A stretch of DNA of 64,000 bases, taken from positions 32,001-96,000 of the IMG/VR virus record IMGVR_UViG_3300021256_000066, one strand, 5' to 3'. Numbering within the stretch: position 1 is the stretch's first letter; each line of letters starts with the position of its first letter. Shown here piece after piece: positions 11,910-32,126 of the stretch. Below the pieces are notes generated by a model that was not told where the DNA came from, did no database searches, and saw only the letters and a program-made list of their open reading frames with translations. The position numbers and the translations under genes were made by a program. The DNA comes from a virus. Taxonomy: Duplodnaviria > Caudoviricetes.

Positions 11910-12332
11910 TTACTCCTCTGCAAAGAGCCTGATAGCCCTGCCGCACTGCGGACAGCGCACCAGCCCCACCAGCGTAGTGCCCTGCGGCTGCTGCTCCTGC
12001 GCTGGCTGCTTATCGAAGGGCAACTCTTCCTGCTCTGACTGCTGACCGTCGGTCTGAGCCGATGCCGCCTGCTGCTGCCCAGCCGATGCCGATTCAGCGG
12101 CAGGCTGCTGTGCGGACTGCGACGGCTTCTGGGCGGTCTTGCCCTCGTTCTCATACCAGTCGCCGAAGAACTCGGCGGGCGAACAGCCGATGACCAGAGC
12201 GATCTCGATAAGTTTCTTCACGTTGGGCGAGCCGTTGATGGTGGCGCTGAGCGAACCTTTGGTGATGCCGAGCGCGTTGGCCACATCCTCCAGCCTGAAT
12301 CCGTGCTTTTTGATAACTGCTAATATCTGCAT
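11910..12332 (-). CDS. XRE-family HTH regulator with C-terminal CxxC
   Basis: IKKHGFRLEDVANALGITKGSLSATINGSPNVKKLIEIA; C-terminal CPQCG; -7 box TAATTTTG on - strand at 12372-12379. Confidence 0.85.
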   Translation of the reverse strand: MQILAVIKKHGFRLEDVANALGITKGSLSATINGSPNVKKLIEIALVIGCSPAEFFGDWYENEGKTAQKPSQSAQQPAAESASAGQQQAASAQTDGQQSEQEELPFDKQPAQEQQPQGTTLVGLVRCPQCGRAIRLFAEE

Positions 12333-12780
12333 AGTTTTAATATTTTTACTCGTTTTGTTGTAATTCTGCTGCAAAATTACAACTTTTCTCCAAATATCCA
12401 AACCTTTTTCTCTAAAAAGTTTGGCTGTTTTAAGATTTTTAATACTTTTGGTTTGGAAGTTTGAAAATATACTCTTAACTTTGCCGTGTTAAACATTAAC
12501 ACTTGAATTGTTAAATATCAAATCTGCTTTAACTTAACATATTAACACATGAAATGTTAAATCGGAGGTCTAAACCCTGTTAAAACGTCGTTTTAGTTGC
12601 GTATCTTTAATTAATGTAGTCAGATTGGCAATTTTTGGTATACCAATGATAATTGCTAATTTGCTGATAATCATATAGTCCTGTTTCTGGCGGAAAACCC
12701 GAAGCCTTCCAAACAGACGCGAGACCGCCGCCACACTGCCGCGCCTCGCCGGCACCCCATTGTCTGGAATGGGGTGTAAT

Positions 12781-13216
12781 ATGCGGGTGAGGGTGCGCGG
12801 TGTGGTGATCATCTCACTTTGCGGTGTGGTGCGGGTTTCTCTCTGTGTGGGTTTCGGTGTGGTGTGGTGGTGGTGTGATCCTCTCACCTCATCAGAGAGT
12901 GAGAGAGTGAGAGAGAGAAACCCCAAACAGATTGCACCCTCATTTCTTTGTGTGTGTGTTCAGGTGGTGGTGTGTGTTCCGGTGGTGGTGTGGGTTTCTC
13001 TCTGTGTGGGTTTCGGTGTGGTGAGGGTGCAATCTGATTGCAGCCATACCACCACCACCAAACCACCACCACACCACACCACAAAATGAGGTGTGAGAGA
13101 TCACCACACCACCACACCACCAAATGAGAGAGAAAACGAAACCAAATACCACCAAAAGCAACAAACAGAGAGAAACCAAAACCCAATACCACCAGAAACC
13201 CAAACAGAGAGAAACC
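12781..13216. repeat. Low-complexity GT-rich / CA-rich region with direct and inverted repeats
   Basis: GGGTTTCTCTCTGTGTGGGTTTCGGTGTGGTG at about 12833 and 12992; ACAGAGAGAAACC (its reverse complement) twice at 13165-13216; CAGATTGCACCCTCA / TGAGGGTGCAATCTG inverted pair at 12928/13022. Confidence 0.85.
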
Positions 13217-13328
13217 GCAAAAAATCGGCACACCTTATTATATATATAGGGGCAAAAACGCAAAAGTTTGAATATTTTGTAACTTTTTCGGAAAAAGTTT
13301 GGTTATTTTGAAAAATTTTCGCTCAAAA

Positions 13329-13361
13329 GTTTGGAATATTCAAAACTTATTCTTACCTTTG
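13329..13361 (+). promoter_or_regulatory. Host sigma-type promoter driving the small-gene array
   Basis: TTTG (-33) at 13329 and TACCTTTG (-7) at 13354. Confidence 0.7.
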
Positions 13362-13391
13362 CAGCGTAAAATTAAAACTTTAAGCAAAATA

Positions 13392-13432
13392 TTAAAACCG
13401 AAACCCCAATGGCATATAATAGGGGATTAAGA
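13392..13432 (+). repeat. Leader hairpin motif A, copy 1 (others at about 14423, 15994, 16351, 16912, 17690, 20450)
   Basis: AACCGAAA-CCNC-AATG..ATAA..-GNGG-ATTA just before ATG; copies 1 and 2 are identical over 41 bp. Confidence 0.85.
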
Positions 13433-13434
13433 CA

Positions 13435-13851
13435 ATGACACATTTTAATTTTAATGGTACAGAGGTAAAAGTTAGTGCATCTTTCAAAGGTGAGGTTTCA
13501 AATGTTTGGGGTGATGGTATGCAGCATTTTAAGTTCATCATTACCATTACAGCCAATGACAAAAAAACATCTTTCACTTATTATGATTCATTTGCTAATT
13601 GGCAAAAGAACAAACAGAACTTAGATTCTGACGATCTCAAATCTGCATTGGACTGTTTTTTCTCTGATGCATCATGTTATGAGAGTGCAACAGATTTGGC
13701 GGATTTTCTTTGTGAGTTTGGGTACAATGAGGACACAGAATCTTTGCGCAAAGGTATGAAAGCGTTTGACGGATGCAAACGTCATTATCAAAGTGCGGTT
13801 AGAGTGTTCGGATCTGATTGGTACGACATCGCAAACGCTATTAATGAATAG
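13435..13851 (+). CDS. Small acidic hypothetical protein (array gene 1)
   Basis: 138 aa, preceded by motif A. Confidence 0.8.
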   Translation: MTHFNFNGTEVKVSASFKGEVSNVWGDGMQHFKFIITITANDKKTSFTYYDSFANWQKNKQNLDSDDLKSALDCFFSDASCYESATDLADFLCEFGYNEDTESLRKGMKAFDGCKRHYQSAVRVFGSDWYDIANAINE

Positions 13852-13920
13852 TTACTAATTAATCCCTATTACAGAGAATCAGATAAAAAGAGTACAGAAC
13901 CATATAAAAAACATTGAGTT

Positions 13921-14148
13921 ATGACTACAAAAGATAAATATTCGTATGAGGTGAGAAAACAGGTCAAAAATGGTGTGGATTTCTCAAAGAATGTATTTGA
14001 AACCCCTATTATATTACGCATTGATTTAGCAGAGATCGCACGAAAATACCATTATAAGAAAACTAATCCTAACCACTCTTTGGGTGTGTGTTTCTATCTG
14101 CTATTGCAAAGAGTATATAACCAGTTAAGAAATGAGGGTGCAATCTGA
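13921..14148 (+). CDS. Hypothetical protein
   Basis: 75 aa, co-oriented in array. Confidence 0.7.
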   Translation: MTTKDKYSYEVRKQVKNGVDFSKNVFETPIILRIDLAEIARKYHYKKTNPNHSLGVCFYLLLQRVYNQLRNEGAI

Positions 14149-14204
14149 TTGCACCCCATACAGAGAGAGAAAAAAGAGTTATAAACAATTTAATCCGGTA
14201 AGTT

Positions 14205-14345
14205 ATGAATAAGTTATTTTTAGTGATCCTTTGTGTTGGTGGTGTGGGTATGTCGCAAATCTACTCATATAGCCCTACACAGTTACTTTGTGATTTAGTG
14301 AGAAGTGGCGAGACCATAAGCAATGTAACAATAAAGAGCGCATAA
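14205..14345 (+). CDS. Small hydrophobic protein (46 aa, not in ORF track)
   Basis: MNKLFLVILCVGGVGMSQ..., preceded by ACAATTTAATCCGGTAAGTTATG, a variant of the array leader. Confidence 0.55.
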   Translation: MNKLFLVILCVGGVGMSQIYSYSPTQLLCDLVRSGETISNVTIKSA

Positions 14346-14465
14346 AATCGGATTAGGGGCAAATATTGAACTTTGTGCGGATCGTAACCGTGTACCCCTA
14401 CAATTATAGAGTAATAGACAATTTAAAACCGAAACCCCAATGGCATATAATAGGGGATTAAGAAC

Positions 14466-14744
14466 ATGAAATATAATACATTTTATTCCCACAAACTGAA
14501 ATGTGAGGTTAGGCAAATAAATGTAAGAACCGCAAAGAAACTCTTTGAGAATGGGAAAGGTATTTTCTTTCAATCCTCAAATATGACATTTGACAATGTA
14601 TGGCACACACCATTCTTTTTTAATGCAGAGTGCGCAAATGGTCAAAGTTTCGAAACTCTTTGTAACTCATACAGATATTATAATTGCGACAATTACAGAG
14701 GGAAATATATCAATTACTTTATGAGGGTTTCGGATTTCTCATAA
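14466..14744 (+). CDS. Hypothetical protein
   Basis: 92 aa, preceded by motif A. Confidence 0.75.
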   Translation: MKYNTFYSHKLKCEVRQINVRTAKKLFENGKGIFFQSSNMTFDNVWHTPFFFNAECANGQSFETLCNSYRYYNCDNYRGKYINYFMRVSDFS

Positions 14745-14799
14745 TACCCCATACCCCTACATTATAGGCAATTTATAGAATCCCTAAAATATTGCAGAT

Positions 14800-15063
14800 A
14801 TGAAAAAAATGGCATACATCAAAGTTAATGGTACGACATTTGGCTACATTTGGCAATGTACCAAAAACAAAGAGTATTTTGTTAATTGGTGTGGGTGTAA
14901 TGGTGGTGAGTTTGCGCAATGGTGCAAACAGATTGCAGAGATACCAAACGCAATAAACTCAATCTTTGGTGTGAGGGTTTCTTTAAAACCTTTGAAATGG
15001 TGTGCAAATTCTTTCGACCAGATTGCAGCAGATCACCCCACAATTATAGAGAATATTATCTAA
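14800..15063 (+). CDS. Hypothetical protein
   Basis: 87 aa, preceded by motif B (ACATTATAG..TTATAGAATC). Confidence 0.7.
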   Translation: MKKMAYIKVNGTTFGYIWQCTKNKEYFVNWCGCNGGEFAQWCKQIAEIPNAINSIFGVRVSLKPLKWCANSFDQIAADHPTIIENII

Positions 15064-15109
15064 TCCCTACATTATAGACATATTATAGAATCACTTAAAT
15101 ATTATAGAT

Positions 15110-15559
15110 ATGGCAAAGATTGATATTTCAAAAGAGAGTTTAGAGAGTTTTAGCCACAATAAAAATGTGTGTGGTATCTCTCAAAGTGAGGTGATCACAA
15201 AGAGAATGATTGCACCCATTGATGAGAAAAACGTTACATCCGATTGGATAGAGCAAATATTTGACGGATATAATTGTACCTATACAGAGGTAAAACGCAC
15301 ACACAAATATTGCGGTTTCGTTGGTGGTGAATTGGTGATGTGTTCTTACACCTTTGGCACAAATACCCTGCAATGGTGGATTGTTATACCCTCTTATGAT
15401 AGTGAAACCGCATACCATTACAATGAGAGATTGCAGAGAGTAAACTCTATCTTATTAGAGAGATTGCAAAAATTTGAGAATGATGAGAGTGATCTGTTTT
15501 CCTACATTGATAACAAAGGTTATTTGATTTATCAGGATTTCTATTTCAAAGGTGAGTAA
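15110..15559 (+). CDS. Hypothetical protein
   Basis: 149 aa, motif B leader. Confidence 0.75.
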   Translation: MAKIDISKESLESFSHNKNVCGISQSEVITKRMIAPIDEKNVTSDWIEQIFDGYNCTYTEVKRTHKYCGFVGGELVMCSYTFGTNTLQWWIVIPSYDSETAYHYNERLQRVNSILLERLQKFENDESDLFSYIDNKGYLIYQDFYFKGE

Positions 15560-15604
15560 TCCCACATTATAGGCATATTATAGAATCACTTAAAAATTAC
15601 AGAT

Positions 15605-15955
15605 ATGGCAAAGTTTACGATAGATTTAGACTATTTCGACATTAAGAGTAAATCTTTGGTTGGTGATATGTGTTTCTTCTTTGAAACCTCATTGGAAAAC
15701 TCTATTTGGTGTGAATCTGCAAAAGAGATGCAACAGAGTTTTGAGGATGGTTTCAATGGTGGTGATATTGGCAATGAGATCGAAAACCCAGAAATCCACA
15801 ATGTATGTGAGGTGGTAGATGAGTTTGGTATGATTGGGTATCCTAAAATCTCTAATATAGTTCTGCTGCAAAATCAGAGAGATTTAGAGAATCATATCCG
15901 GAAAATGGTTTCACAGAAATACCCACAATCGGAAATCAAAGTTTGGTATAAGTGA
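15605..15955 (+). CDS. Acidic hypothetical protein
   Basis: 116 aa, motif B leader. Confidence 0.75.
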   Translation: MAKFTIDLDYFDIKSKSLVGDMCFFFETSLENSIWCESAKEMQQSFEDGFNGGDIGNEIENPEIHNVCEVVDEFGMIGYPKISNIVLLQNQRDLENHIRKMVSQKYPQSEIKVWYK

Positions 15956-16033
15956 TACCCATTATAGAGAGTTTATAGAATCACAGATAAATTTAGAACC
16001 GAAACCCCAATGTGATAACAGGGGATTACGACA

Positions 16034-16303
16034 ATGAGTAAAACAGAGATTTTAAAGAATGCTTACAACCGCATAAAGAATGGCGAAACATTGGTATGTA
16101 ATGGGTGTGTAATGTGGAAATATTATGATCCGTTTGCAGGGCATAATGTAATAGAATGGCGCAATTTCGGACAAAGTGCAAACCGCATGAATTTCGACAA
16201 TTTCAAATGGATTGTAGAGGTGATCGCAAAGAGTATAGATTACATCTTTGAAACCCCACAAGAGTATGCACAAAGAAAGAACATACCATTGTATTTGGTT
16301 TAA
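16034..16303 (+). CDS. Hypothetical protein
   Basis: 89 aa, motifs B and A. Confidence 0.75.
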   Translation: MSKTEILKNAYNRIKNGETLVCNGCVMWKYYDPFAGHNVIEWRNFGQSANRMNFDNFKWIVEVIAKSIDYIFETPQEYAQRKNIPLYLV

Positions 16304-16389
16304 TATCTCTTTATAGGTATATAGAGAGTTTATAGAATCAGAGAATTATTAGAACCGAAACCACAATGTGATAATAGTGGATTACAAAG

Positions 16390-16851
16390 ATGGCAAAGAA
16401 TTTAGAGTTTATCAATGTATTAGAGGATTCTTACCCATTGTATGAGTATTGCAAAGAGAATGGTTTTACCGATTGTGAGGATTACGATGAGTGGTTTGAC
16501 AATGGTGGTGAGTTGAGTTTCTTTGAGGGTGATCCCGACATTATCAAAGTGAATGGTGAGATAGGTTATTTCTGCAAATGTGGTGATGTGGTTTTCTACT
16601 ACTTTGATGATTGTTTCACACATGATGCAGAACAGATACTCAAAGGTTTCTTTGCAGCATTCAATGTGGGTACTACCATTGGCGGTGAGAGTTGGATGAG
16701 TGGTGAGTTACCAAAGGGTGTGAGTGATGCAGCAGAGATACAGAATTGGGATGTGTGGGAAAAGATTAGATGCGGTATTGCATACAGAGGTGGTGCCGGA
16801 TATACCTACACTATACAGAGTTGGGGTAACTATTTGAGGTATGCAGCATAA
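16390..16851 (+). CDS. Acidic hypothetical protein
   Basis: 153 aa, motifs B and A. Confidence 0.75.
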   Translation: MAKNLEFINVLEDSYPLYEYCKENGFTDCEDYDEWFDNGGELSFFEGDPDIIKVNGEIGYFCKCGDVVFYYFDDCFTHDAEQILKGFFAAFNVGTTIGGESWMSGELPKGVSDAAEIQNWDVWEKIRCGIAYRGGAGYTYTIQSWGNYLRYAA

Positions 16852-16950
16852 CCCCATATTATAGACATTATAGGAAATCAGAGATATTACAGATAAACAA
16901 TTTAATTCATAAGAACCGAAACCACAATGTGATAATAGTGGATTACAGAG

Positions 16951-17637
16951 ATGAAGAACTATAAAGTAAAGTTATTCCATTTTGATGAGTTATCAGAGGA
17001 TGCAAAAGCAAAGGTGTGCGATAAGGAGAGAGAGAGTGATTATAACTTTGGCTATCTCTCACAAGAAACAGATGCAGAGGAAAGAATCGCCACATTGGAT
17101 AAGTTCTGTGAGGTATTTGGCATTAAGTATAATATAGATTACGATCATAATCACAGATTCATCGAATGGCATTTCCTGGATGTGGATATGAATGGGTATG
17201 ATTGGTGTGATGAGGATATAGAGGGTAAGTATCTGTTGAGATTTCTCAATCGCTACTACTTTGATATTCTCTCAAAGAAATACTACTCATGCAATCAGCA
17301 TTACGATGAGAATGGCAAATTCCATTACGCACACAGATATTCACGTTTTCAGTATGAGAGAGGTAATTGTCCTTTTACCGGAATGTGTTACGATTGCGAC
17401 ATATTGGATAAGATTTTTGAGTGGTATGACAAACCTAATTGGAAAATCTCTTTGCATGATCTCTTTGAGGATGTTTTCTCTCACTATATGAGTTTGTGGG
17501 AAAGTGAGGATGATTACCGCATGAGTGATGAACACATTTCCGACATGATTTCTGCTAATTGGGGTGATAAACTCTACTTTGAGGATGGTAGAGAGTTTAA
17601 CGGCAATGAGGATGATTTAGAACCGATTGCAGCATAA
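16951..17637 (+). CDS. Acidic phage protein of the FDELSEDAK type
   Basis: N-terminal KLFHFDELSEDAKAKV, CPFTGMCYDCDIL and C-terminal YFEDG resemble a widespread mobile-element family. Confidence 0.7.
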   Translation: MKNYKVKLFHFDELSEDAKAKVCDKERESDYNFGYLSQETDAEERIATLDKFCEVFGIKYNIDYDHNHRFIEWHFLDVDMNGYDWCDEDIEGKYLLRFLNRYYFDILSKKYYSCNQHYDENGKFHYAHRYSRFQYERGNCPFTGMCYDCDILDKIFEWYDKPNWKISLHDLFEDVFSHYMSLWESEDDYRMSDEHISDMISANWGDKLYFEDGREFNGNEDDLEPIAA

Positions 17638-17732
17638 TTATAGGGTAAGTGAGAAATTAAGCGATTACAAACGATTATAGATAGGAATTAGAACCGATCC
17701 CCGAATGTGTATATAAGAGTGGGTTTATAAAG

Positions 17733-18005
17733 ATGAAGAAAAACGATATTTACAGAGAGTTTCAAAGGATTGCAGCAGAGGTAGTGGGTGACAACCGCAA
17801 AGCTCAAAAGTATTATGTGATGCAGATGTGCGAACAGTTGGGTAAGGTGAACCACAAGAACCCATTTGTGATGTGGTGCAGCAGGAAAAGATGTATGGTG
17901 TATCAGAGTGGTATGGTAGAGAAACCTACACCAAAAAACTCACAGAATGGTGCATACTACCTTTTCCGCAATAACTCACAGAGTGCAGAGAGAGTATCTT
18001 TTTAA
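17733..18005 (+). CDS. Hypothetical protein
   Basis: 90 aa, diverged motif A. Confidence 0.7.
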   Translation: MKKNDIYREFQRIAAEVVGDNRKAQKYYVMQMCEQLGKVNHKNPFVMWCSRKRCMVYQSGMVEKPTPKNSQNGAYYLFRNNSQSAERVSF

Positions 18006-18063
18006 GTGAAGAGTGAATAGTGAAGAATTACATATTATAGAACCGGTAAAATATCACAGAATT

Positions 18064-18609
18064 ATGAACAATGATGTATATATGGTGGAATACAAAGGTA
18101 AGAAATTCCCCACAAGAGAGATTGAGATTGAACACTACATTAAGGGTATGGGTGTAGTAACTATTGCCGATTGGGAATTGTGGAAAACAATAGAGGATGA
18201 TTGCCGAAATGGGGATAGCAGAGCAACCGCAATCGACAATGGCATATTCTACTACTGCAATTCGGGAATGATAGCAAGCAATCCGTCTGATACAGAACTT
18301 ATCTACTCTGTATTGAGGGGTATGCACAATGAGGATGATTTTACGGATGAGTGGTGGTACAATCTAATGCGCAATGCAACCTTTGAGATTGCACAGATGC
18401 ACGAAAGAGGTGAGATCAACTGCAATGTAGAGGGTTATGAGTGTGGTGGTTATTATTCGGTGTATGGTTATAGTGATGGTGTGAATCACTCTCTTTATGA
18501 GGGTAAGAGTGCAAAGATGGCTGCAATGGCTGCAATGAGTGCAATCACCACCATCCGGCTGATGAACTATCCGTATTGGAGTATCACAGAGGGTGTAAGT
18601 ACATTATAG
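18064..18609 (+). CDS. Hypothetical protein
   Basis: ATG after AATATCACAGAATT leader. Confidence 0.7.
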   Translation: MNNDVYMVEYKGKKFPTREIEIEHYIKGMGVVTIADWELWKTIEDDCRNGDSRATAIDNGIFYYCNSGMIASNPSDTELIYSVLRGMHNEDDFTDEWWYNLMRNATFEIAQMHERGEINCNVEGYECGGYYSVYGYSDGVNHSLYEGKSAKMAAMAAMSAITTIRLMNYPYWSITEGVSTL

Positions 18610-18660
18610 AGTTTATAGGATATTAGAGATATTACAAACAATTTAATTCAGAATAAGATT

Positions 18661-19245
18661 ATGGCACAGAAATATTCGTTTAAGACAATGTGGATTGATG
18701 ATAAGGAAATGTTTTCAGTTTCATTGTTATGCAATGGTGAGGTGGTAGAAACTCACACATTCAAAGGACACCAGGATATGATGATGTGGATTTCGGACAC
18801 AATGGCAGGGTTGCAACTCTGTGGCGATGATTGGGAATTTGTATGCAAAGAGAGAACCTATATTGAGAAACCCAAAGACAATAACCTTGATGCGCTATTC
18901 AATAGTGTGGTGGAAAAGAGACAATCAGATTACGATAAGCGCAGAGCAGAGGGTAAGGCAAAGGAAAGAGAGTGGATGCAGAGAACACAAGAGTTTTTCG
19001 CAAAGATCGAGTTCTTAAATCAGTATGGTTTCGGTTTCCACATTTCAGAGGAAAAGGAAACTGGTTGCACCTCTTATCCCGATGAACATAGAATATATAT
19101 CCGTCCTTCAAAAACTCATGGGCGTATCAATGTAATGCCGAATGGTGACATACATTGCTCTTGCTATGTAGGCACTTACGACAAGACATTCAAGAGTGTA
19201 GAGGAATTTGTGAAAGCAATGGCAGAGTGTATCAGAATGAAGTAA
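18661..19245 (+). CDS. Hypothetical protein
   Basis: 194 aa, full motif B leader ending ACAATTTAATTCAGAATAAGATTATG. Confidence 0.75.
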   Translation: MAQKYSFKTMWIDDKEMFSVSLLCNGEVVETHTFKGHQDMMMWISDTMAGLQLCGDDWEFVCKERTYIEKPKDNNLDALFNSVVEKRQSDYDKRRAEGKAKEREWMQRTQEFFAKIEFLNQYGFGFHISEEKETGCTSYPDEHRIYIRPSKTHGRINVMPNGDIHCSCYVGTYDKTFKSVEEFVKAMAECIRMK

Positions 19246-19275
19246 CATTATATAACCGATTAAAATTCACAGACT

Positions 19276-19476
19276 ATGGCACAGAACAATATGCAATCAG
19301 ACGAGTTGGTAATCACTATCCGCATTACATTTGAGCATGACGGAAGAATGGGTGATCGGGATGAACGTAATGAGTATGTGGCTGCAAAGGTGATTGGCGA
19401 TGCGCTATCGCACACCCACACCATTGAGAACGGCATACAGATACACGACATCGAGAATTGTGGTGAGAATTGGTAA
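19276..19476 (+). CDS. Hypothetical protein
   Basis: 66 aa in array. Confidence 0.65.
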   Translation: MAQNNMQSDELVITIRITFEHDGRMGDRDERNEYVAAKVIGDALSHTHTIENGIQIHDIENCGENW

Positions 19477-19537
19477 CATTATAGACATTATAGGAAATCA
19501 GAGTAATTAACGAATTAAACAATAGGAGAATTAAGTT

Positions 19538-20410
19538 ATGGCAAAAGAGATTAGTGTTTGTAAGGTAGATATGGGTAGAAACATTGAAAAACCCACAAAG
19601 GTGAATAGGTTTAAGAATTTCTGTACCTACTGCAAAGTACCCACAATAGGTTGGGGCAAGCCATTCTATGCAATCATGCAGGGTAAGTTGAGGGCAGTAA
19701 AGTTCATTCGTATTGAATACTACACCTACAATACCTTTAACAACACAGATAGTTTGGAGTGTAAGTTTGCAGTAATCTATCTTGATGTGGCAGGAATTGG
19801 TGAGGTGAAAGTTTCAGCACACTATTGGTACGACATTCCATTCTCTATCTTTGAGAGTGTAGAGGATTTCAGAAACAATGTGGAGTACGATGTTAGTCAC
19901 GATGCAGGTGAGGTACACCTTTTAGATATGCTGCATGATGTTGCAAATGGTAGGCAGATGTTTAAGCATATTAGTGCAGGAGAGAATGATACCCTATTGC
20001 AGTTTGTGTGGGATGCAGCAAAGTGTGAGGTGAGAACCGCTTACACAGAGATACCCTCATGTATCAGTTACACAGAGAGAGAGGGTTTCTATACCAAAGA
20101 GAAATGGGTATTAGGCAATGGCAGATTTGCCACAAGAGAGGATTGTGAGAATGCCAACAATGTAGAGGTGGTGGAGTTTGAGGACGATCCTACTCACATT
20201 GAAAAGGATTTGCGCAAGCAGATTCGTACTGAAGTAATGCGTACCTTTGCTGATTGGCTAACTGCATCCGACATTGAGAATATGGCAGAGAGTATCATTG
20301 ATGATTGTGTTGAGGATGTTAAGGTATGCAGCGACTACCCACACTACAATGATGATGATGTGCGTATTGCCATTCAGAGGGTAATTCTTAACAGAGTGGT
20401 TGGTGAGTAA
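19538..20410 (+). CDS. Hypothetical protein
   Basis: 290 aa, motif B leader. Confidence 0.75.
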   Translation: MAKEISVCKVDMGRNIEKPTKVNRFKNFCTYCKVPTIGWGKPFYAIMQGKLRAVKFIRIEYYTYNTFNNTDSLECKFAVIYLDVAGIGEVKVSAHYWYDIPFSIFESVEDFRNNVEYDVSHDAGEVHLLDMLHDVANGRQMFKHISAGENDTLLQFVWDAAKCEVRTAYTEIPSCISYTEREGFYTKEKWVLGNGRFATREDCENANNVEVVEFEDDPTHIEKDLRKQIRTEVMRTFADWLTASDIENMAESIIDDCVEDVKVCSDYPHYNDDDVRIAIQRVILNRVVGE

Positions 20411-20488
20411 TCTTATTATAGAGTTTATAGGATATTAGAGATACAATTCAGAACCGAAACCGCAATGCGATAATGGCGGAGTAAGACA

Positions 20489-21190
20489 ATGAAAGAGAAT
20501 ATTGCAGTATTGTTGGCAGAGAGGAACGATTTGGTGGAGAAGTTCAACAAGCGTAAGGACTATGCAGTCCAGGGTACGCAGGACAGAATGGATGAGATTT
20601 GCCGGCAGATAGACAGTCTGATGACAGAGGACAACTCCATTGAGGTGACTTTTTTAGAGTATGGTGTGGTGAGGTACACACAATCACAGATTGATGAGTT
20701 GAAAGCAAAGGGAGTGGATTTATTTCGCTATACGAAGAAAGCAGACGGGATGTACGATCATACGGAGAAGATACTCAAGCAGGGCAGGGTGATACTCTCT
20801 GATAATGACGAGAAGAATCGGTTTTTTCTCTTCTGCATTGGCTACCACAAGTATTTGGATGAGTACACTCCATTCTACCATATCCATGATCACTATCCCT
20901 GCTATCCCCACAAGATACAAAACTCTCTTGACATCTATGAGGGTACATACAAGAATCAGTTTGTGGATGATTTTGTCTATACGACTGCAAACGGAGAGTT
21001 GGCAATCAAGTATGGCAATAAGAGAGTGGATAGTTGGAATACCGCATACAACTGCGTATTGACTACCTCTATTCATGCCAACCTATTCAGCATTAGTCCT
21101 GCATTGATAAGCAAGAACCGCAAAGAGGTGCAGCGTTATGAGGGCAACCGATGGTATCACACTAACCGCATGATTGGGAGTTATCAGTAA
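20489..21190 (+). CDS. Hypothetical protein
   Basis: 233 aa, motifs B and A (CCGC/GCGG variant). Confidence 0.75.
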   Translation: MKENIAVLLAERNDLVEKFNKRKDYAVQGTQDRMDEICRQIDSLMTEDNSIEVTFLEYGVVRYTQSQIDELKAKGVDLFRYTKKADGMYDHTEKILKQGRVILSDNDEKNRFFLFCIGYHKYLDEYTPFYHIHDHYPCYPHKIQNSLDIYEGTYKNQFVDDFVYTTANGELAIKYGNKRVDSWNTAYNCVLTTSIHANLFSISPALISKNRKEVQRYEGNRWYHTNRMIGSYQ

Positions 21191-21319
21191 ACATATTATA
21201 GACATTATAGGAAATCAGAGTAATAACAACTTTTCGATTAAGCGAGTAAAATCAAATGTATTTGAATTGTCGAGCGTGAGAAAAGTCAAACGAAGTTTAA
21301 TTTAATTCAGAATAAGATT

Positions 21320-22051: not shown

Positions 22052-22112
22052 CCCTTTATAGCGAGTGTAAGAAATCAGAGTAGAAACAATTAAAGTATAG
22101 GAGAAACAAGTT

Positions 22113-22880
22113 ATGATTATCAATATTGAGTTTACAACCGCAAGAGGTTACAAGTATGAGACGATGCGCACAGAGTTTGACCGCAACTATCGGGATGAGG
22201 AACAGGCATTGATCTTCGTGGAGAGCGAGGAGGATGATTTCAATGGCTACTTTGAGGTGAACATCCGCAAGGACAAGCAGGGCAAGGCTATCAGCGAGGG
22301 TTATGTGTGCGAGTATGCAAGCACAGAGGATAGCGACCCACAGACTATCTATGAGGATGCGAAGATTGAGGTCAAGCTGCATGACTTTGACGATGTGTTG
22401 GAGTTGGCTAATGCGGAACTGTGGCAGGATGATTTGCAGATTGTGTTGGAGTACGATGGTGAGTGTTATTGGGCTATCGGCACAGAGATTAAGGCTACAA
22501 AGGAAATTAAGTGGTATGTATCGGCAGACTTTGAGAACGAGGTGCGAGGGCATATCTATGAGTGTTGGGCACACGCAAGGGCTATGGCAAAGGAATTGGC
22601 AAAGACTGACGATAAACCGAAGATGTGGTGTGTGACTTATGTGGGTTTGTCGGATTCGGAGTACAAGGCTAATGGCTATTCAGAGGTTGCTCTGTATGCC
22701 ACAAAGGATGCAGCGAAAGCGAAACTGAAAGCATGGCGAGACAACGAGATTGCGGAACTGAAAGAGCAGGAACGTGACTATGAGATATTGGAAGATGAGG
22801 ACGATGAGTGCCGTATCAGTTGGTGCGGACATGGTGAGCAAATCCGCATTGAGGTACACGAAGTGGAGTTGAATAAGTAA
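22113..22880 (+). CDS. Highly acidic hypothetical protein
   Basis: 255 aa, D/E-rich. Confidence 0.75.
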   Translation: MIINIEFTTARGYKYETMRTEFDRNYRDEEQALIFVESEEDDFNGYFEVNIRKDKQGKAISEGYVCEYASTEDSDPQTIYEDAKIEVKLHDFDDVLELANAELWQDDLQIVLEYDGECYWAIGTEIKATKEIKWYVSADFENEVRGHIYECWAHARAMAKELAKTDDKPKMWCVTYVGLSDSEYKANGYSEVALYATKDAAKAKLKAWRDNEIAELKEQERDYEILEDEDDECRISWCGHGEQIRIEVHEVELNK

Positions 22881-23495: not shown

Positions 23496-23563
23496 TCACC
23501 TTTTATATATTATAGTGAGATTATAGGATTTAGTGAGAAATTAAAAGTATAGGAGATAAGATT

Positions 23564-23788
23564 ATGGGATGGATTAAAACACCAACGAAATCGAGCGAGG
23601 AAATCTTCAGCGAGATTGTCAAAGACAGACCGACTTGGAACGGACGGATTGGCGATAGCACAACACCATACGAATATTGGAGTGACTGGCTGCGTGATAA
23701 CTATGACCTCACAATAAAGCAAGCTGACGAGGTTTGCAGAGGACTTAAAGAGTATTACCATATAGAGCATTTCTATTATGGAGAGTGA
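23564..23788 (+). CDS. Hypothetical protein
   Basis: 74 aa in array. Confidence 0.7.
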   Translation: MGWIKTPTKSSEEIFSEIVKDRPTWNGRIGDSTTPYEYWSDWLRDNYDLTIKQADEVCRGLKEYYHIEHFYYGE

Positions 23789-24396: not shown

Positions 24397-24426
24397 CATT
24401 ATAAACTATATAGGAGATTAAGGACT

Positions 24427-24648
24427 ATGGTACATTTGGAGAGGAAGAATCCCGAAGTGAGGGAACATCTGACTGACGAGGGAGTGCAGATCGTGATGGA
24501 CGCTCTGTTGCACGAAATGGAGCGATACAACAAGGCAATGGACTTGGTGACGTACGGGAACGCACGTCATGCTATCGACTATGCGAAGAAAAAGGTTTAT
24601 CGGGTTTATCAAGTGATGAACAACCTTATGCCCGAAGATAAGGGGTGA
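24427..24648 (+). CDS. Hypothetical protein
   Basis: 73 aa in array. Confidence 0.7.
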   Translation: MVHLERKNPEVREHLTDEGVQIVMDALLHEMERYNKAMDLVTYGNARHAIDYAKKKVYRVYQVMNNLMPEDKG

Positions 24649-31842: not shown

Positions 31843-32126
31843 TGCTCTACCTTTATCTTAATGGTATTGCCACACTTATCACACTTAATAGTCAGTTCAT
31901 CCTTGGGCAGTGTTTCTTCTTGAATATAGCCAATACCTTCTGGAGCAAACAGCTGCCAGAACTCTACGTCAAGTGCTTCGGCAATACGCTCAAAAACAGC
32001 CATCGAAGCTGTATATCGGCCACTTATGGTATTATTCAGTTGCTGAATCGACATATCCAGTTTCTCGGCCAATTCTTTCTGCGTCATGCCCTTTTGTTTA
32101 ATGATTGATTTTATTTGTAAGTTCAT
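31839..32126 (-). CDS. XRE-family HTH regulator
   Basis: IKQKGMTQKELAEKLDMS...IAEALDVEFWQLF, C-terminal CDKCG. Confidence 0.88.
   Translation of the reverse strand: MNLQIKSIIKQKGMTQKELAEKLDMSIQQLNNTISGRYTASMAVFERIAEALDVEFWQLFAPEGIGYIQEETLPKDELTIKCDKCGNTIKIKVEQ

Follow-up and report, generated by a model that had tools for sequence, protein, structure and literature searches.

The early gene array and its repeated leader

The window analyzed here is the 64,000-nucleotide stretch that runs from position 32,001 to 96,000 of the 129.5-kb virus record IMGVR_UViG_3300021256_000066 (G000:C1:32001-96000), and coordinates below are those of the window unless another contig is named. The subject of the analysis is a short hairpin-bearing leader that is found repeatedly ahead of the start codons of early genes. 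These genes belong to an array of ~25 small co-oriented open reading frames (ORFs) between 13.3 and 25 kb, where GC content is only 34 to 44%, compared with 51% for the window, and where there is a strong skew of G over C. Seven of the first ~16 genes of the array are preceded by the leader, in copies of 42 to 46 nt each, and the ATG that follows each copy opens a real ORF. The genome also encodes a tape-measure protein, a head protease, and a sliding clamp. Comparison of its large ORFs with PHROGs gave structural and replication matches only, and no giant polymerase-like ORF is present besides the tape measure protein. Searches of the phage for sigma-70 region 2 and for S21 found neither, each with a valid control, and a search for T7-type RNA polymerase (RNA_pol, PF00940) gave no match, with a control that was uninformative. 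The seven copies, with bit scores from a covariance model built from 13 gap-free copies, and the promoter ahead of them are as follows.

13394..13437, + strand: copy 1, in the 5'UTR of the first early gene; arms 13404-13407/13422-13425, 14-nt loop, ATG 13435; 53.4 bits
14425..14468, + strand: copy 2; arms 14435-14438/14453-14456, ATG 14466; 48.2 bits
15995..16036, + strand: copy 3; CCCC/GGGG arms 16005-16008/16021-16024, 12-nt loop, ATG 16034; 69 bits
16351..16392, + strand: copy 4; CCAC/GUGG arms 16361-16364/16377-16380, ATG 16390; 68.2 bits
16912..16953, + strand: copy 5; CCAC/GUGG arms 16922-16925/16938-16941, ATG 16951 (228-aa gene)
17690..17735, + strand: copy 6, diverged; CCCG/UGGG arms 17700-17703/17720-17723, 16-nt loop, ATG 17733 (90-aa gene); 17.7 bits, E 0.12
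20450..20491, + strand: copy 7; CCGC/GCGG arms 20460-20463/20476-20479, ATG 20489; 64 bits
13330..13361, + strand: Bacteroidota-type promoter (TTTG, a 20-nt spacer, and TAccTTTG), the sole one ahead of the + strand early array

From its 5' end the leader consists of a box, AGAACCGAAA, a C-rich/G-rich stem of 4 to 5 bp, a conserved A/U-rich loop of 12 to 16 nt that starts with AAUG, and an A-rich spacer of 9 to 10 nt that ends at the ATG. The box is present on the + strand as the exact 8-mer AACCGAAA at 13396, 14427, 15997, 16353, 16914, and 20452, and in the diverged copy at 17692. An earlier note on this DNA had described this succession of box, stem, loop, and stem just ahead of the ATG, and rereading the sequence recovered all seven copies on the + strand with the stems it had named, which are CCCC/GGGG in three copies (13404, 14435, and 16005), CCAC/GUGG in two (16361 and 16922), and CCGC/GCGG in one (20460), while the diverged copy near 17690 pairs CCCG with UGGG and so includes one G-U pair. 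In the whole 129.5-kb genome a 16-nt core pattern matches six times in the forward direction and never in reverse, and a reversed-pattern control matches nowhere. The 3' arm ends 9 nt ahead of the ATG, or 10 nt in the diverged copy, and among 50 distinct leaders from this phage and its relatives the spacer is 9 nt in 38, 10 nt in 11, and 11 nt in 1, a length that is kept though the spacer sequences fall into several unrelated types. As a separate observation, the opening codons ATG GCA AAG are common to many early ORFs (in the window at 15110, 15605, 16390, 18661, and 19276, and at many loci), and because these ORFs are otherwise unrelated, either cassette sharing or selection on start context must reach 6 to 9 nt into the coding sequence.

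The early array is most simply read as one long polycistronic transcript from one host-type promoter. The pattern of the Bacteroidota promoter (TTTG, 17 to 23 nt, TAnnTTTG) occurs six times in the window, compared with 0.85 expected, and four of these sites, at 12372 (- strand) and at 12420, 12452, and 13330 (+ strand), cluster at 12372-12483 and 13330; on the + strand inside the early array the pattern does not occur at all. The -7 box of the promoter at 13330 lies at 13354-13361, copy 1 begins 34 nt downstream of it, and the same layout of promoter and then element recurs in nine contigs with a gap of 28 to 34 nt. The copies thus all lie downstream of a single promoter, which places all seven in 5'UTR or intercistronic RNA. 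The region upstream has features of its own, in that, after the divergent Bacteroidota-type promoters of 12372-12483, the sequence is first rich in GT and then switches to CA (12372-13260), and the equivalent region of the related record L008 (5960-6400) holds four tandem ~100-bp repeats in which the 5' box is fused to the G-rich arm, with neither the C-rich arm nor the loop.

Pairing, covariation, and conservation of the hairpin

A blastn search of the region against 50,697 phage records gave no match, and it was scans with DNA patterns that led to two IMG/VR relatives (L007/L008 and L049) and to ~22 short metagenome contigs, with several copies each; further contigs (L100-L102, L108, L110, and L111) were reached via homologues of two early proteins. 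The total alignment holds 52 distinct copies from ~30 contigs. The covariance model detected seven copies per record in the three large records, exclusively on the + strand and no further than 8 kb into the early array. It detected none in the rest of these records, nor in a 106-kb relative whose version of the 228-aa early protein is 61% identical. A strict pattern scan of the genome collection returned only single chance-like matches in unrelated metagenome-assembled genomes, and a permissive viral scan returned 53 single chance matches and only the two true relatives. The phages bearing the element are a clade of uncultivated Bacteroidota phages, probably of gut or rumen origin.

The helix was assessed first in the gap-free alignment of 13 sequences, in which the four stem pairs are 100% paired, with pair 3 occurring as C-G in six sequences, A-U in six, and G-C in one, and pair 4 as C-G in 12 and A-U in one. 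The covariation score of this alignment was reached by none of 500 shuffles, and sliding the 3' arm by 1 to 3 columns left 25 to 48% pairing and a covariation score of at most 0.02; RNAalifold adds two invariant inner A-U pairs past a 1x1 mismatch. A MAFFT alignment of all copies placed the 3' arm of the 12-nt-loop copies wrongly and was excluded from counting, and the 52 sequences were fitted to the model, with the register fixed independently of the arms by the conserved loop motif. Pairing holds in 95.7% of the cells of this larger alignment. Pair 3 is C-G in 38 sequences, A-U in 9, and G-C in 2, with 2 unpaired, and pair 4 is C-G in 43, A-U in 2, G-U in 1, and U-G in 1, with 3 unpaired. 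Among the cells changed on both sides, 14 are complementary compared with 2.7 in shuffles, and the variation is centered on these two stem pairs. The three-way covariation of the third stem position (C-G, A-U, and G-C), which the earlier note had seen in the window and for which it had called for a larger alignment, therefore holds across the 52 sequences; the stem covaries at two positions, and the slid controls show almost none.

The variants can be arranged in a network, in which a mismatched CCCC/UGGG stem (L078) leads to CCCA/UGGG (L089, L102, and L108), to CCCG/UGGG (copy 6 and L100), or to a shifted ACCC/GGGU (L078 and L101), and the single-sided variants are mostly wobble pairs or are rescued by such a register shift. 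The orthologues of copy 6 in five contigs have a 5-bp CCCAC/GUGGG stem, and a second CCGC/GCGG copy, with a different loop and tail, is found at 2973-3014 of L100. At one orthologous site, ahead of the 228-aa gene, three paired stems occur, which are CCAC/GUGG in four phages, ACCCA/UGGGU in L102, and CCCGC/GCGGG together with another loop in L108. In total there are ~5 to 6 independent compensatory or wobble events and 3 to 4 uncompensated ones. The hairpin is the minimum-free-energy fold in five of the seven window copies when these are folded in 60-nt contexts, and the hairpin or its shifted version is the minimum-free-energy fold of 42 of 44 distinct leaders folded alone. The covariation is good evidence, as read from these alignments, for a 4-bp helix. 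A search of the whole window against Rfam 15 gave no match at the gathering score, and over 12300-21300 no match at E up to 5 overlaps a copy, in agreement with the description of the element in the earlier note as uncharacterized. Judged by its sequence, the leader motif is a real and previously undescribed structured leader, with a predicted helix backed by covariation.

The leader is conserved far beyond its surroundings and is exchanged between genes. The 42-nt leader before the 228-aa gene is 98% identical between phages, compared with only 70 to 78% for the DNA of the gene and 65 to 80% for the 60 nt upstream of the leader. The leader of the ORF at ATG 16390 has a CCAC/GUGG stem in the window, but in L007 and L075 its stem is CCCC/GGGG and its loop 14 nt long, and one leader is also found ahead of unrelated ORFs in related phages. 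Leaders also exist that have the box and no hairpin, as before the ATG near 18067. Since the same ORF can carry different leaders, and leaders can have the box without the hairpin, the hairpin is an optional module of a leader cassette that shuffles.

Other repeated features occur in and around these arrays. A variant leader with the box AGAACTGCATCCC, at 1620-1670 of L007 and ~4728-4780 of L108, has two possible overlapping helices, CUGC/GCAG and CCC(GC)/(GC)GGG, and may be a pseudoknot version of the element. A ~50-nt conserved element with nested hairpins, an outer AGGGG..CCCCU stem around a GCGG..CCGC hairpin, lies at 14349-14398 of the window and at ~1128-1180, 1548-1600, and 2043-2095 of L007, ~25 nt upstream of several leader hairpins, and may be a second structured RNA. 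Between 13850 and 27000, nearly every stop codon of the early array is followed, ahead of the leader, by a boundary motif of two to three ATTATAGA-like units with a spacing of 9 to 10 nt (for example at 14770-14790, 15065-15090, 16860-16885, and 19478-19500), which might serve as punctuation, as a series of protein-binding sites, or as the promoter of an uncharacterized polymerase. Between 13392 and 17400, GGAG (1 compared with 13.8 expected) and GAAG (2 compared with 12.1) are strongly depleted, as are their complements CTCC (0 compared with 3.4) and CTTC (1 compared with 5.3), whereas GAGG is not; because the depletion hits both strands, it suggests that G[GA]AG is avoided as a DNA-level (restriction) target. 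Finally, a sister clade that lacks the element (L009 7000-20000, L105 6900-12200, and L107 5800-11200) has its own perfect hairpin of 6 to 9 bp in nearly every early intergenic region, with differing sequences flanked by conserved AAACTTT and AGTACGATAA, ~20 to 25 nt ahead of the ATG; these hairpins are a candidate RNA motif in their own right, one whose stems vary very extensively.

A proposed translation-initiation module and the competing explanations

The earlier note had left a choice between a structured RNA element and a DNA hairpin or operator, and it is the first half of this choice that has gained support. Action as RNA is favored because the strand bias is absolute and tied to the coding strand, because the copies lie downstream of the promoter and so within the transcript, because, on the opposite strand, the G-U and U-G variants would read as A-C mismatches, and because the loop varies in length (12, 14, or 15 nt), a variation that would disturb the phasing of half-sites in a dimeric DNA operator. 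The DNA alternative has lost ground accordingly, as neither variable arm spacing nor wobble variants fit it and compensatory change is not expected of a protein operator.

Several more specific identities were considered and rejected. Sigma-70-like sites are not enriched (33 compared with 40.5 expected from shuffles), and neither are intrinsic-terminator-like sites (5 compared with 8.2 expected), of which just one weak site is on the + strand and none is a copy of the leader. A leader peptide or upstream ORF starting at the AUG of the loop does not fit, since a stop follows immediately in the 12-nt-loop classes, three L049 copies have ACG in place of the AUG, and no one frame is common to the classes. 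In hairpin promoters of the N4 type, the virion RNA polymerase, a phage-encoded single-subunit enzyme, recognizes a 5- to 7-bp stem with a 3-nt loop on the template strand; the leader has a stem of 4 to 5 bp and a loop of 12 to 16 nt, its wobble variants are A-C mismatches on the template strand, and the RNA_pol search described above found no match, within the limit of its uninformative control.

The reading that we tentatively favor, and that is quite possibly correct, is that a trans-acting factor reads the element as a cis-acting RNA module in the translation-initiation region of the immediate-early cistrons. It is suggested by the combination of a loop and box that are conserved, a helix maintained through compensatory change, a fixed short distance from the AUG, and a restriction to the first cistrons of the array. 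In this mechanism, the single Bacteroidota-type promoter would drive the long polycistronic early transcript, in which the box would be single-stranded, and box and loop, displayed on the helix, would bind a trans-acting factor. This factor, perhaps an early protein of the phage, perhaps a ribosomal or RNA-binding protein of the host, would then sit at -10 to -35 from the AUG, where the platform of the 30S subunit contacts mRNA, and would control ribosome loading across this gene set jointly. We infer the action on translation, the binding of a factor, and the direction of control from the position of the element; of the two directions shut-off would be preferred, as in a translational operator, with activation as the alternative, and the choice is a guess. 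The whole leader in addition behaves like a portable cassette, moved by recombination between unrelated early ORFs.

One early protein is a candidate partner of the element. The highly conserved 90-aa protein encoded at 17733-18005, behind copy 6, is represented by 24 cluster representatives with 33 invariant residues, it occurs in six of the six element-bearing loci that were compared and is missing from those parts of three sister-clade loci that were covered, and in a table of presence and absence it is the sole family that tracks the element across loci. A zinc finger was considered for this protein and rejected, as only two cysteines are conserved.

A number of points weigh against a factor-read translational module. 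No candidate binder was found by annotation, ~20 early proteins having no Pfam match, and the AlphaFold model of the 90-aa protein (pLDDT 69) had no match in the PDB at a useful E-value. Other genes of the same operon manage without the hairpin. The helix is short and weak, at -5.6 to -10.3 kcal/mol with z-scores of about -1 to -2.6 for the window copies and at -4.7 to -10 kcal/mol for the leaders in general, with z-scores that are not significant, and its support therefore comes from repetition and covariation, not from stability. A stem position is unpaired in three to four copies (L078 4310, L085 2133, L110 914, and L102 1799). Lastly, the number of independent compensatory events is small because the copies are paralogous and come from a single narrow phage clade, in which gene conversion could inflate the apparent conservation.

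Among the other explanations, an unlikely one is processive antitermination of the nut type, in which box and hairpin on the nascent RNA would load an N-like protein and host Nus factors for read-through of the array of at least 12 kb. In a lambda-type nut site, boxA is accompanied by the boxB hairpin, which has a GNRA-like loop of 5 nt and is the target of an N protein. The leader resembles it in placing a conserved single-stranded box before a short GC-stemmed hairpin with a conserved A-rich loop, and in its position early in the early transcript, where the first copy always lies ~25 nt past the predicted start of the lone early promoter, at the head of a long array with no other host-type promoter. 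It differs in having no sequence similarity, a loop of 12 to 16 nt, and seven copies per genome, each 9 to 10 nt from an ATG, whereas nut sites are unrelated to start codons and one or two suffice. There are, moreover, hardly any intrinsic-terminator-like sites on the + strand to overcome, given the counts above, and no N-like protein was found among the ~20 early proteins with Pfam, though proteins of this kind are small and would escape it.

No more probable than antitermination is a role in the processing or stabilization of the mRNA, in which an endoribonuclease of host or phage would cut the box and leave the hairpin near the new 5' end to shield the downstream cistron, much as at the RNase III sites of the T7 early operon or in 5' stabilizer hairpins. 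The intercistronic position in a polycistronic early RNA would suit this role, as would the conserved single-stranded A-rich box directly 5' of the helix and the sister clade, in which nearly all intergenic regions of a like array have a hairpin that is of another kind and varies strongly. The stem is, however, far too short for RNase III, copy 1 is already close to the primary 5' end, and a stabilizer would need neither strong conservation of the loop nor a fixed distance from the ATG.

Doubtful, too, is an element that acts at the level of DNA in the manner of the promoter early stem-loops (PeSLs) of T4-like phages, as a phage-specific promoter with a -10-like TATAAT or GATAAT in the loop and the box upstream, or as a recombination hot spot at a poly-C/poly-G inverted repeat, or both. 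The PeSLs are repeated regulatory cassettes that precede small early ORFans; their GGGG..CCCC stems share sequence with the -10 box, they run into the ribosome site and start codon on the 3' side, and they provide a patch of homology that mediates shuffling (PMC2839356, PMC4122927). The leader is similar in all these respects of layout, its loop holds TATAAT or TGnGATAAT, copies 1, 2, and 7 score as sigma-70-like, and the exchange of leaders between ORFs makes them ORFan-flanking points of gene exchange. What sets it apart is that a PeSL combines a strong sigma-70 promoter with a transcription-terminating stem-loop, whereas the leader has no host-type promoter, no U-tract, and a stem of 4 to 5 bp, so that by sequence neither the promoter nor the terminator of a PeSL is found in it. 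The host promoters here are of the Bacteroidota TTTG/TAnnTTTG type and not sigma-70, for which the phage shows neither enriched sites nor a region 2 protein of its own, just as it gave no match to a T7-type polymerase within the limit of that uninformative control. In addition, the register between the box and the -10-like hexamer shifts by 2 nt between classes, the TG is lost in three L049 copies, and a promoter would leave the compensatory stem changes and G-U variants unexplained.

The relation of the G-rich arm to the Shine-Dalgarno sequence raises a further alternative. The G-rich 3' arm occupies the same position, 9 nt before the ATG, as the GGAG of other leaders of the array, and the helix could be a masked Shine-Dalgarno sequence, resembling a sequestration hairpin in that the C-rich 5' arm would mask the G-rich arm. 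The uncompensated variants in L085 and L110 convert this arm to GAGG(U). Calculated with the 16S 3' tail, the duplex is -8.8 kcal/mol for GGGGUG, -9.6 for GAGGUG, and -3.1 for GUGG; at -3.1 to -4 kcal/mol, the GUGG and UGGG classes form only poor duplexes with it, a point against a plain Shine-Dalgarno role. In Bacteroidia ribosomes, the anti-Shine-Dalgarno tail is reported to be sequestered (PMC7797042, PMC9976891, PMC13000453) and the Shine-Dalgarno sequence to be unused (PMC7797042, PMC9976891). Elsewhere in the array, the strongly Shine-Dalgarno-like UAGGAGA stands exactly 9 nt before the ATGs at 19538, 22113, 23564, and 24427 (19515-19540, 22090-22115, 23540-23566, and 24405-24429), which is unexpected in a phage with Bacteroidota-type promoters because the ribosomes of Bacteroidia reportedly do not use this signal. 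It is conceivable, at long odds, that the hairpin is a cis-supplied stand-in for the Shine-Dalgarno/anti-Shine-Dalgarno helix, docking on the 30S platform 9 nt from the AUG and positioning the start codon. In Bacteroidia bS21, bS18, and bS6 lock the 16S tail and leave the platform cleft without such a helix, and a C-rich/G-rich mini-helix in the phage mRNA, along with contacts made by the conserved loop, would take its place; this, if true, would be a structure-based and Shine-Dalgarno-independent recruitment of ribosomes to immediate-early phage genes.

It is highly improbable that the hairpin is functionless, a repeat spread and homogenized by recombination with its complementary variants due to coincidence or hitchhiking, for although the copies are near-identical within and between genomes, cassette exchange is evident, and the thermodynamic z-scores are unremarkable, the variation is concentrated at two stem pairs with the excess of complementary changes over shuffles given above, single-sided variants are mostly wobble pairs or rescued by a register shift, and conservation of the leader far exceeds that of the intergenic and coding DNA on either side.

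Translational operators and early expression in Bacteroidota phages

The MS2 and PP7 coat-protein operator hairpins are phage translational operators. Phage translational control is also exerted through the T4 gp43 operator hairpin and the T4 RegA regulon (PMC3014915). Compared with these systems, the leader described here is similar in that the translation-initiation region contains a small hairpin or defined RNA site, the loop of which is conserved and the stem of which is maintained as base pairs, and it is similar to RegA in particular in that many early mRNAs would be under joint control. It differs in lying wholly upstream of the AUG (-10 to -35), in its seven near-identical copies per genome, in having a partner that is only a candidate, and in belonging to phages of a host phylum without Shine-Dalgarno pairing.

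Little is known of how early expression is controlled in the phages of Bacteroidota, the dominant phylum of gut and rumen, and the same is true of how start codons are chosen without Shine-Dalgarno pairing. A compact, multicopy, covarying element at a fixed distance from the start codons of the genes that are expressed first upon infection is a direct handle on both questions, and through it a new RNA-binding regulator or a structure-based signal for ribosome recruitment might be discovered. The exchange of leaders also means that modular cassettes resembling PeSLs shuffle early ORFans in a group of phages unrelated to the T4-like phages.

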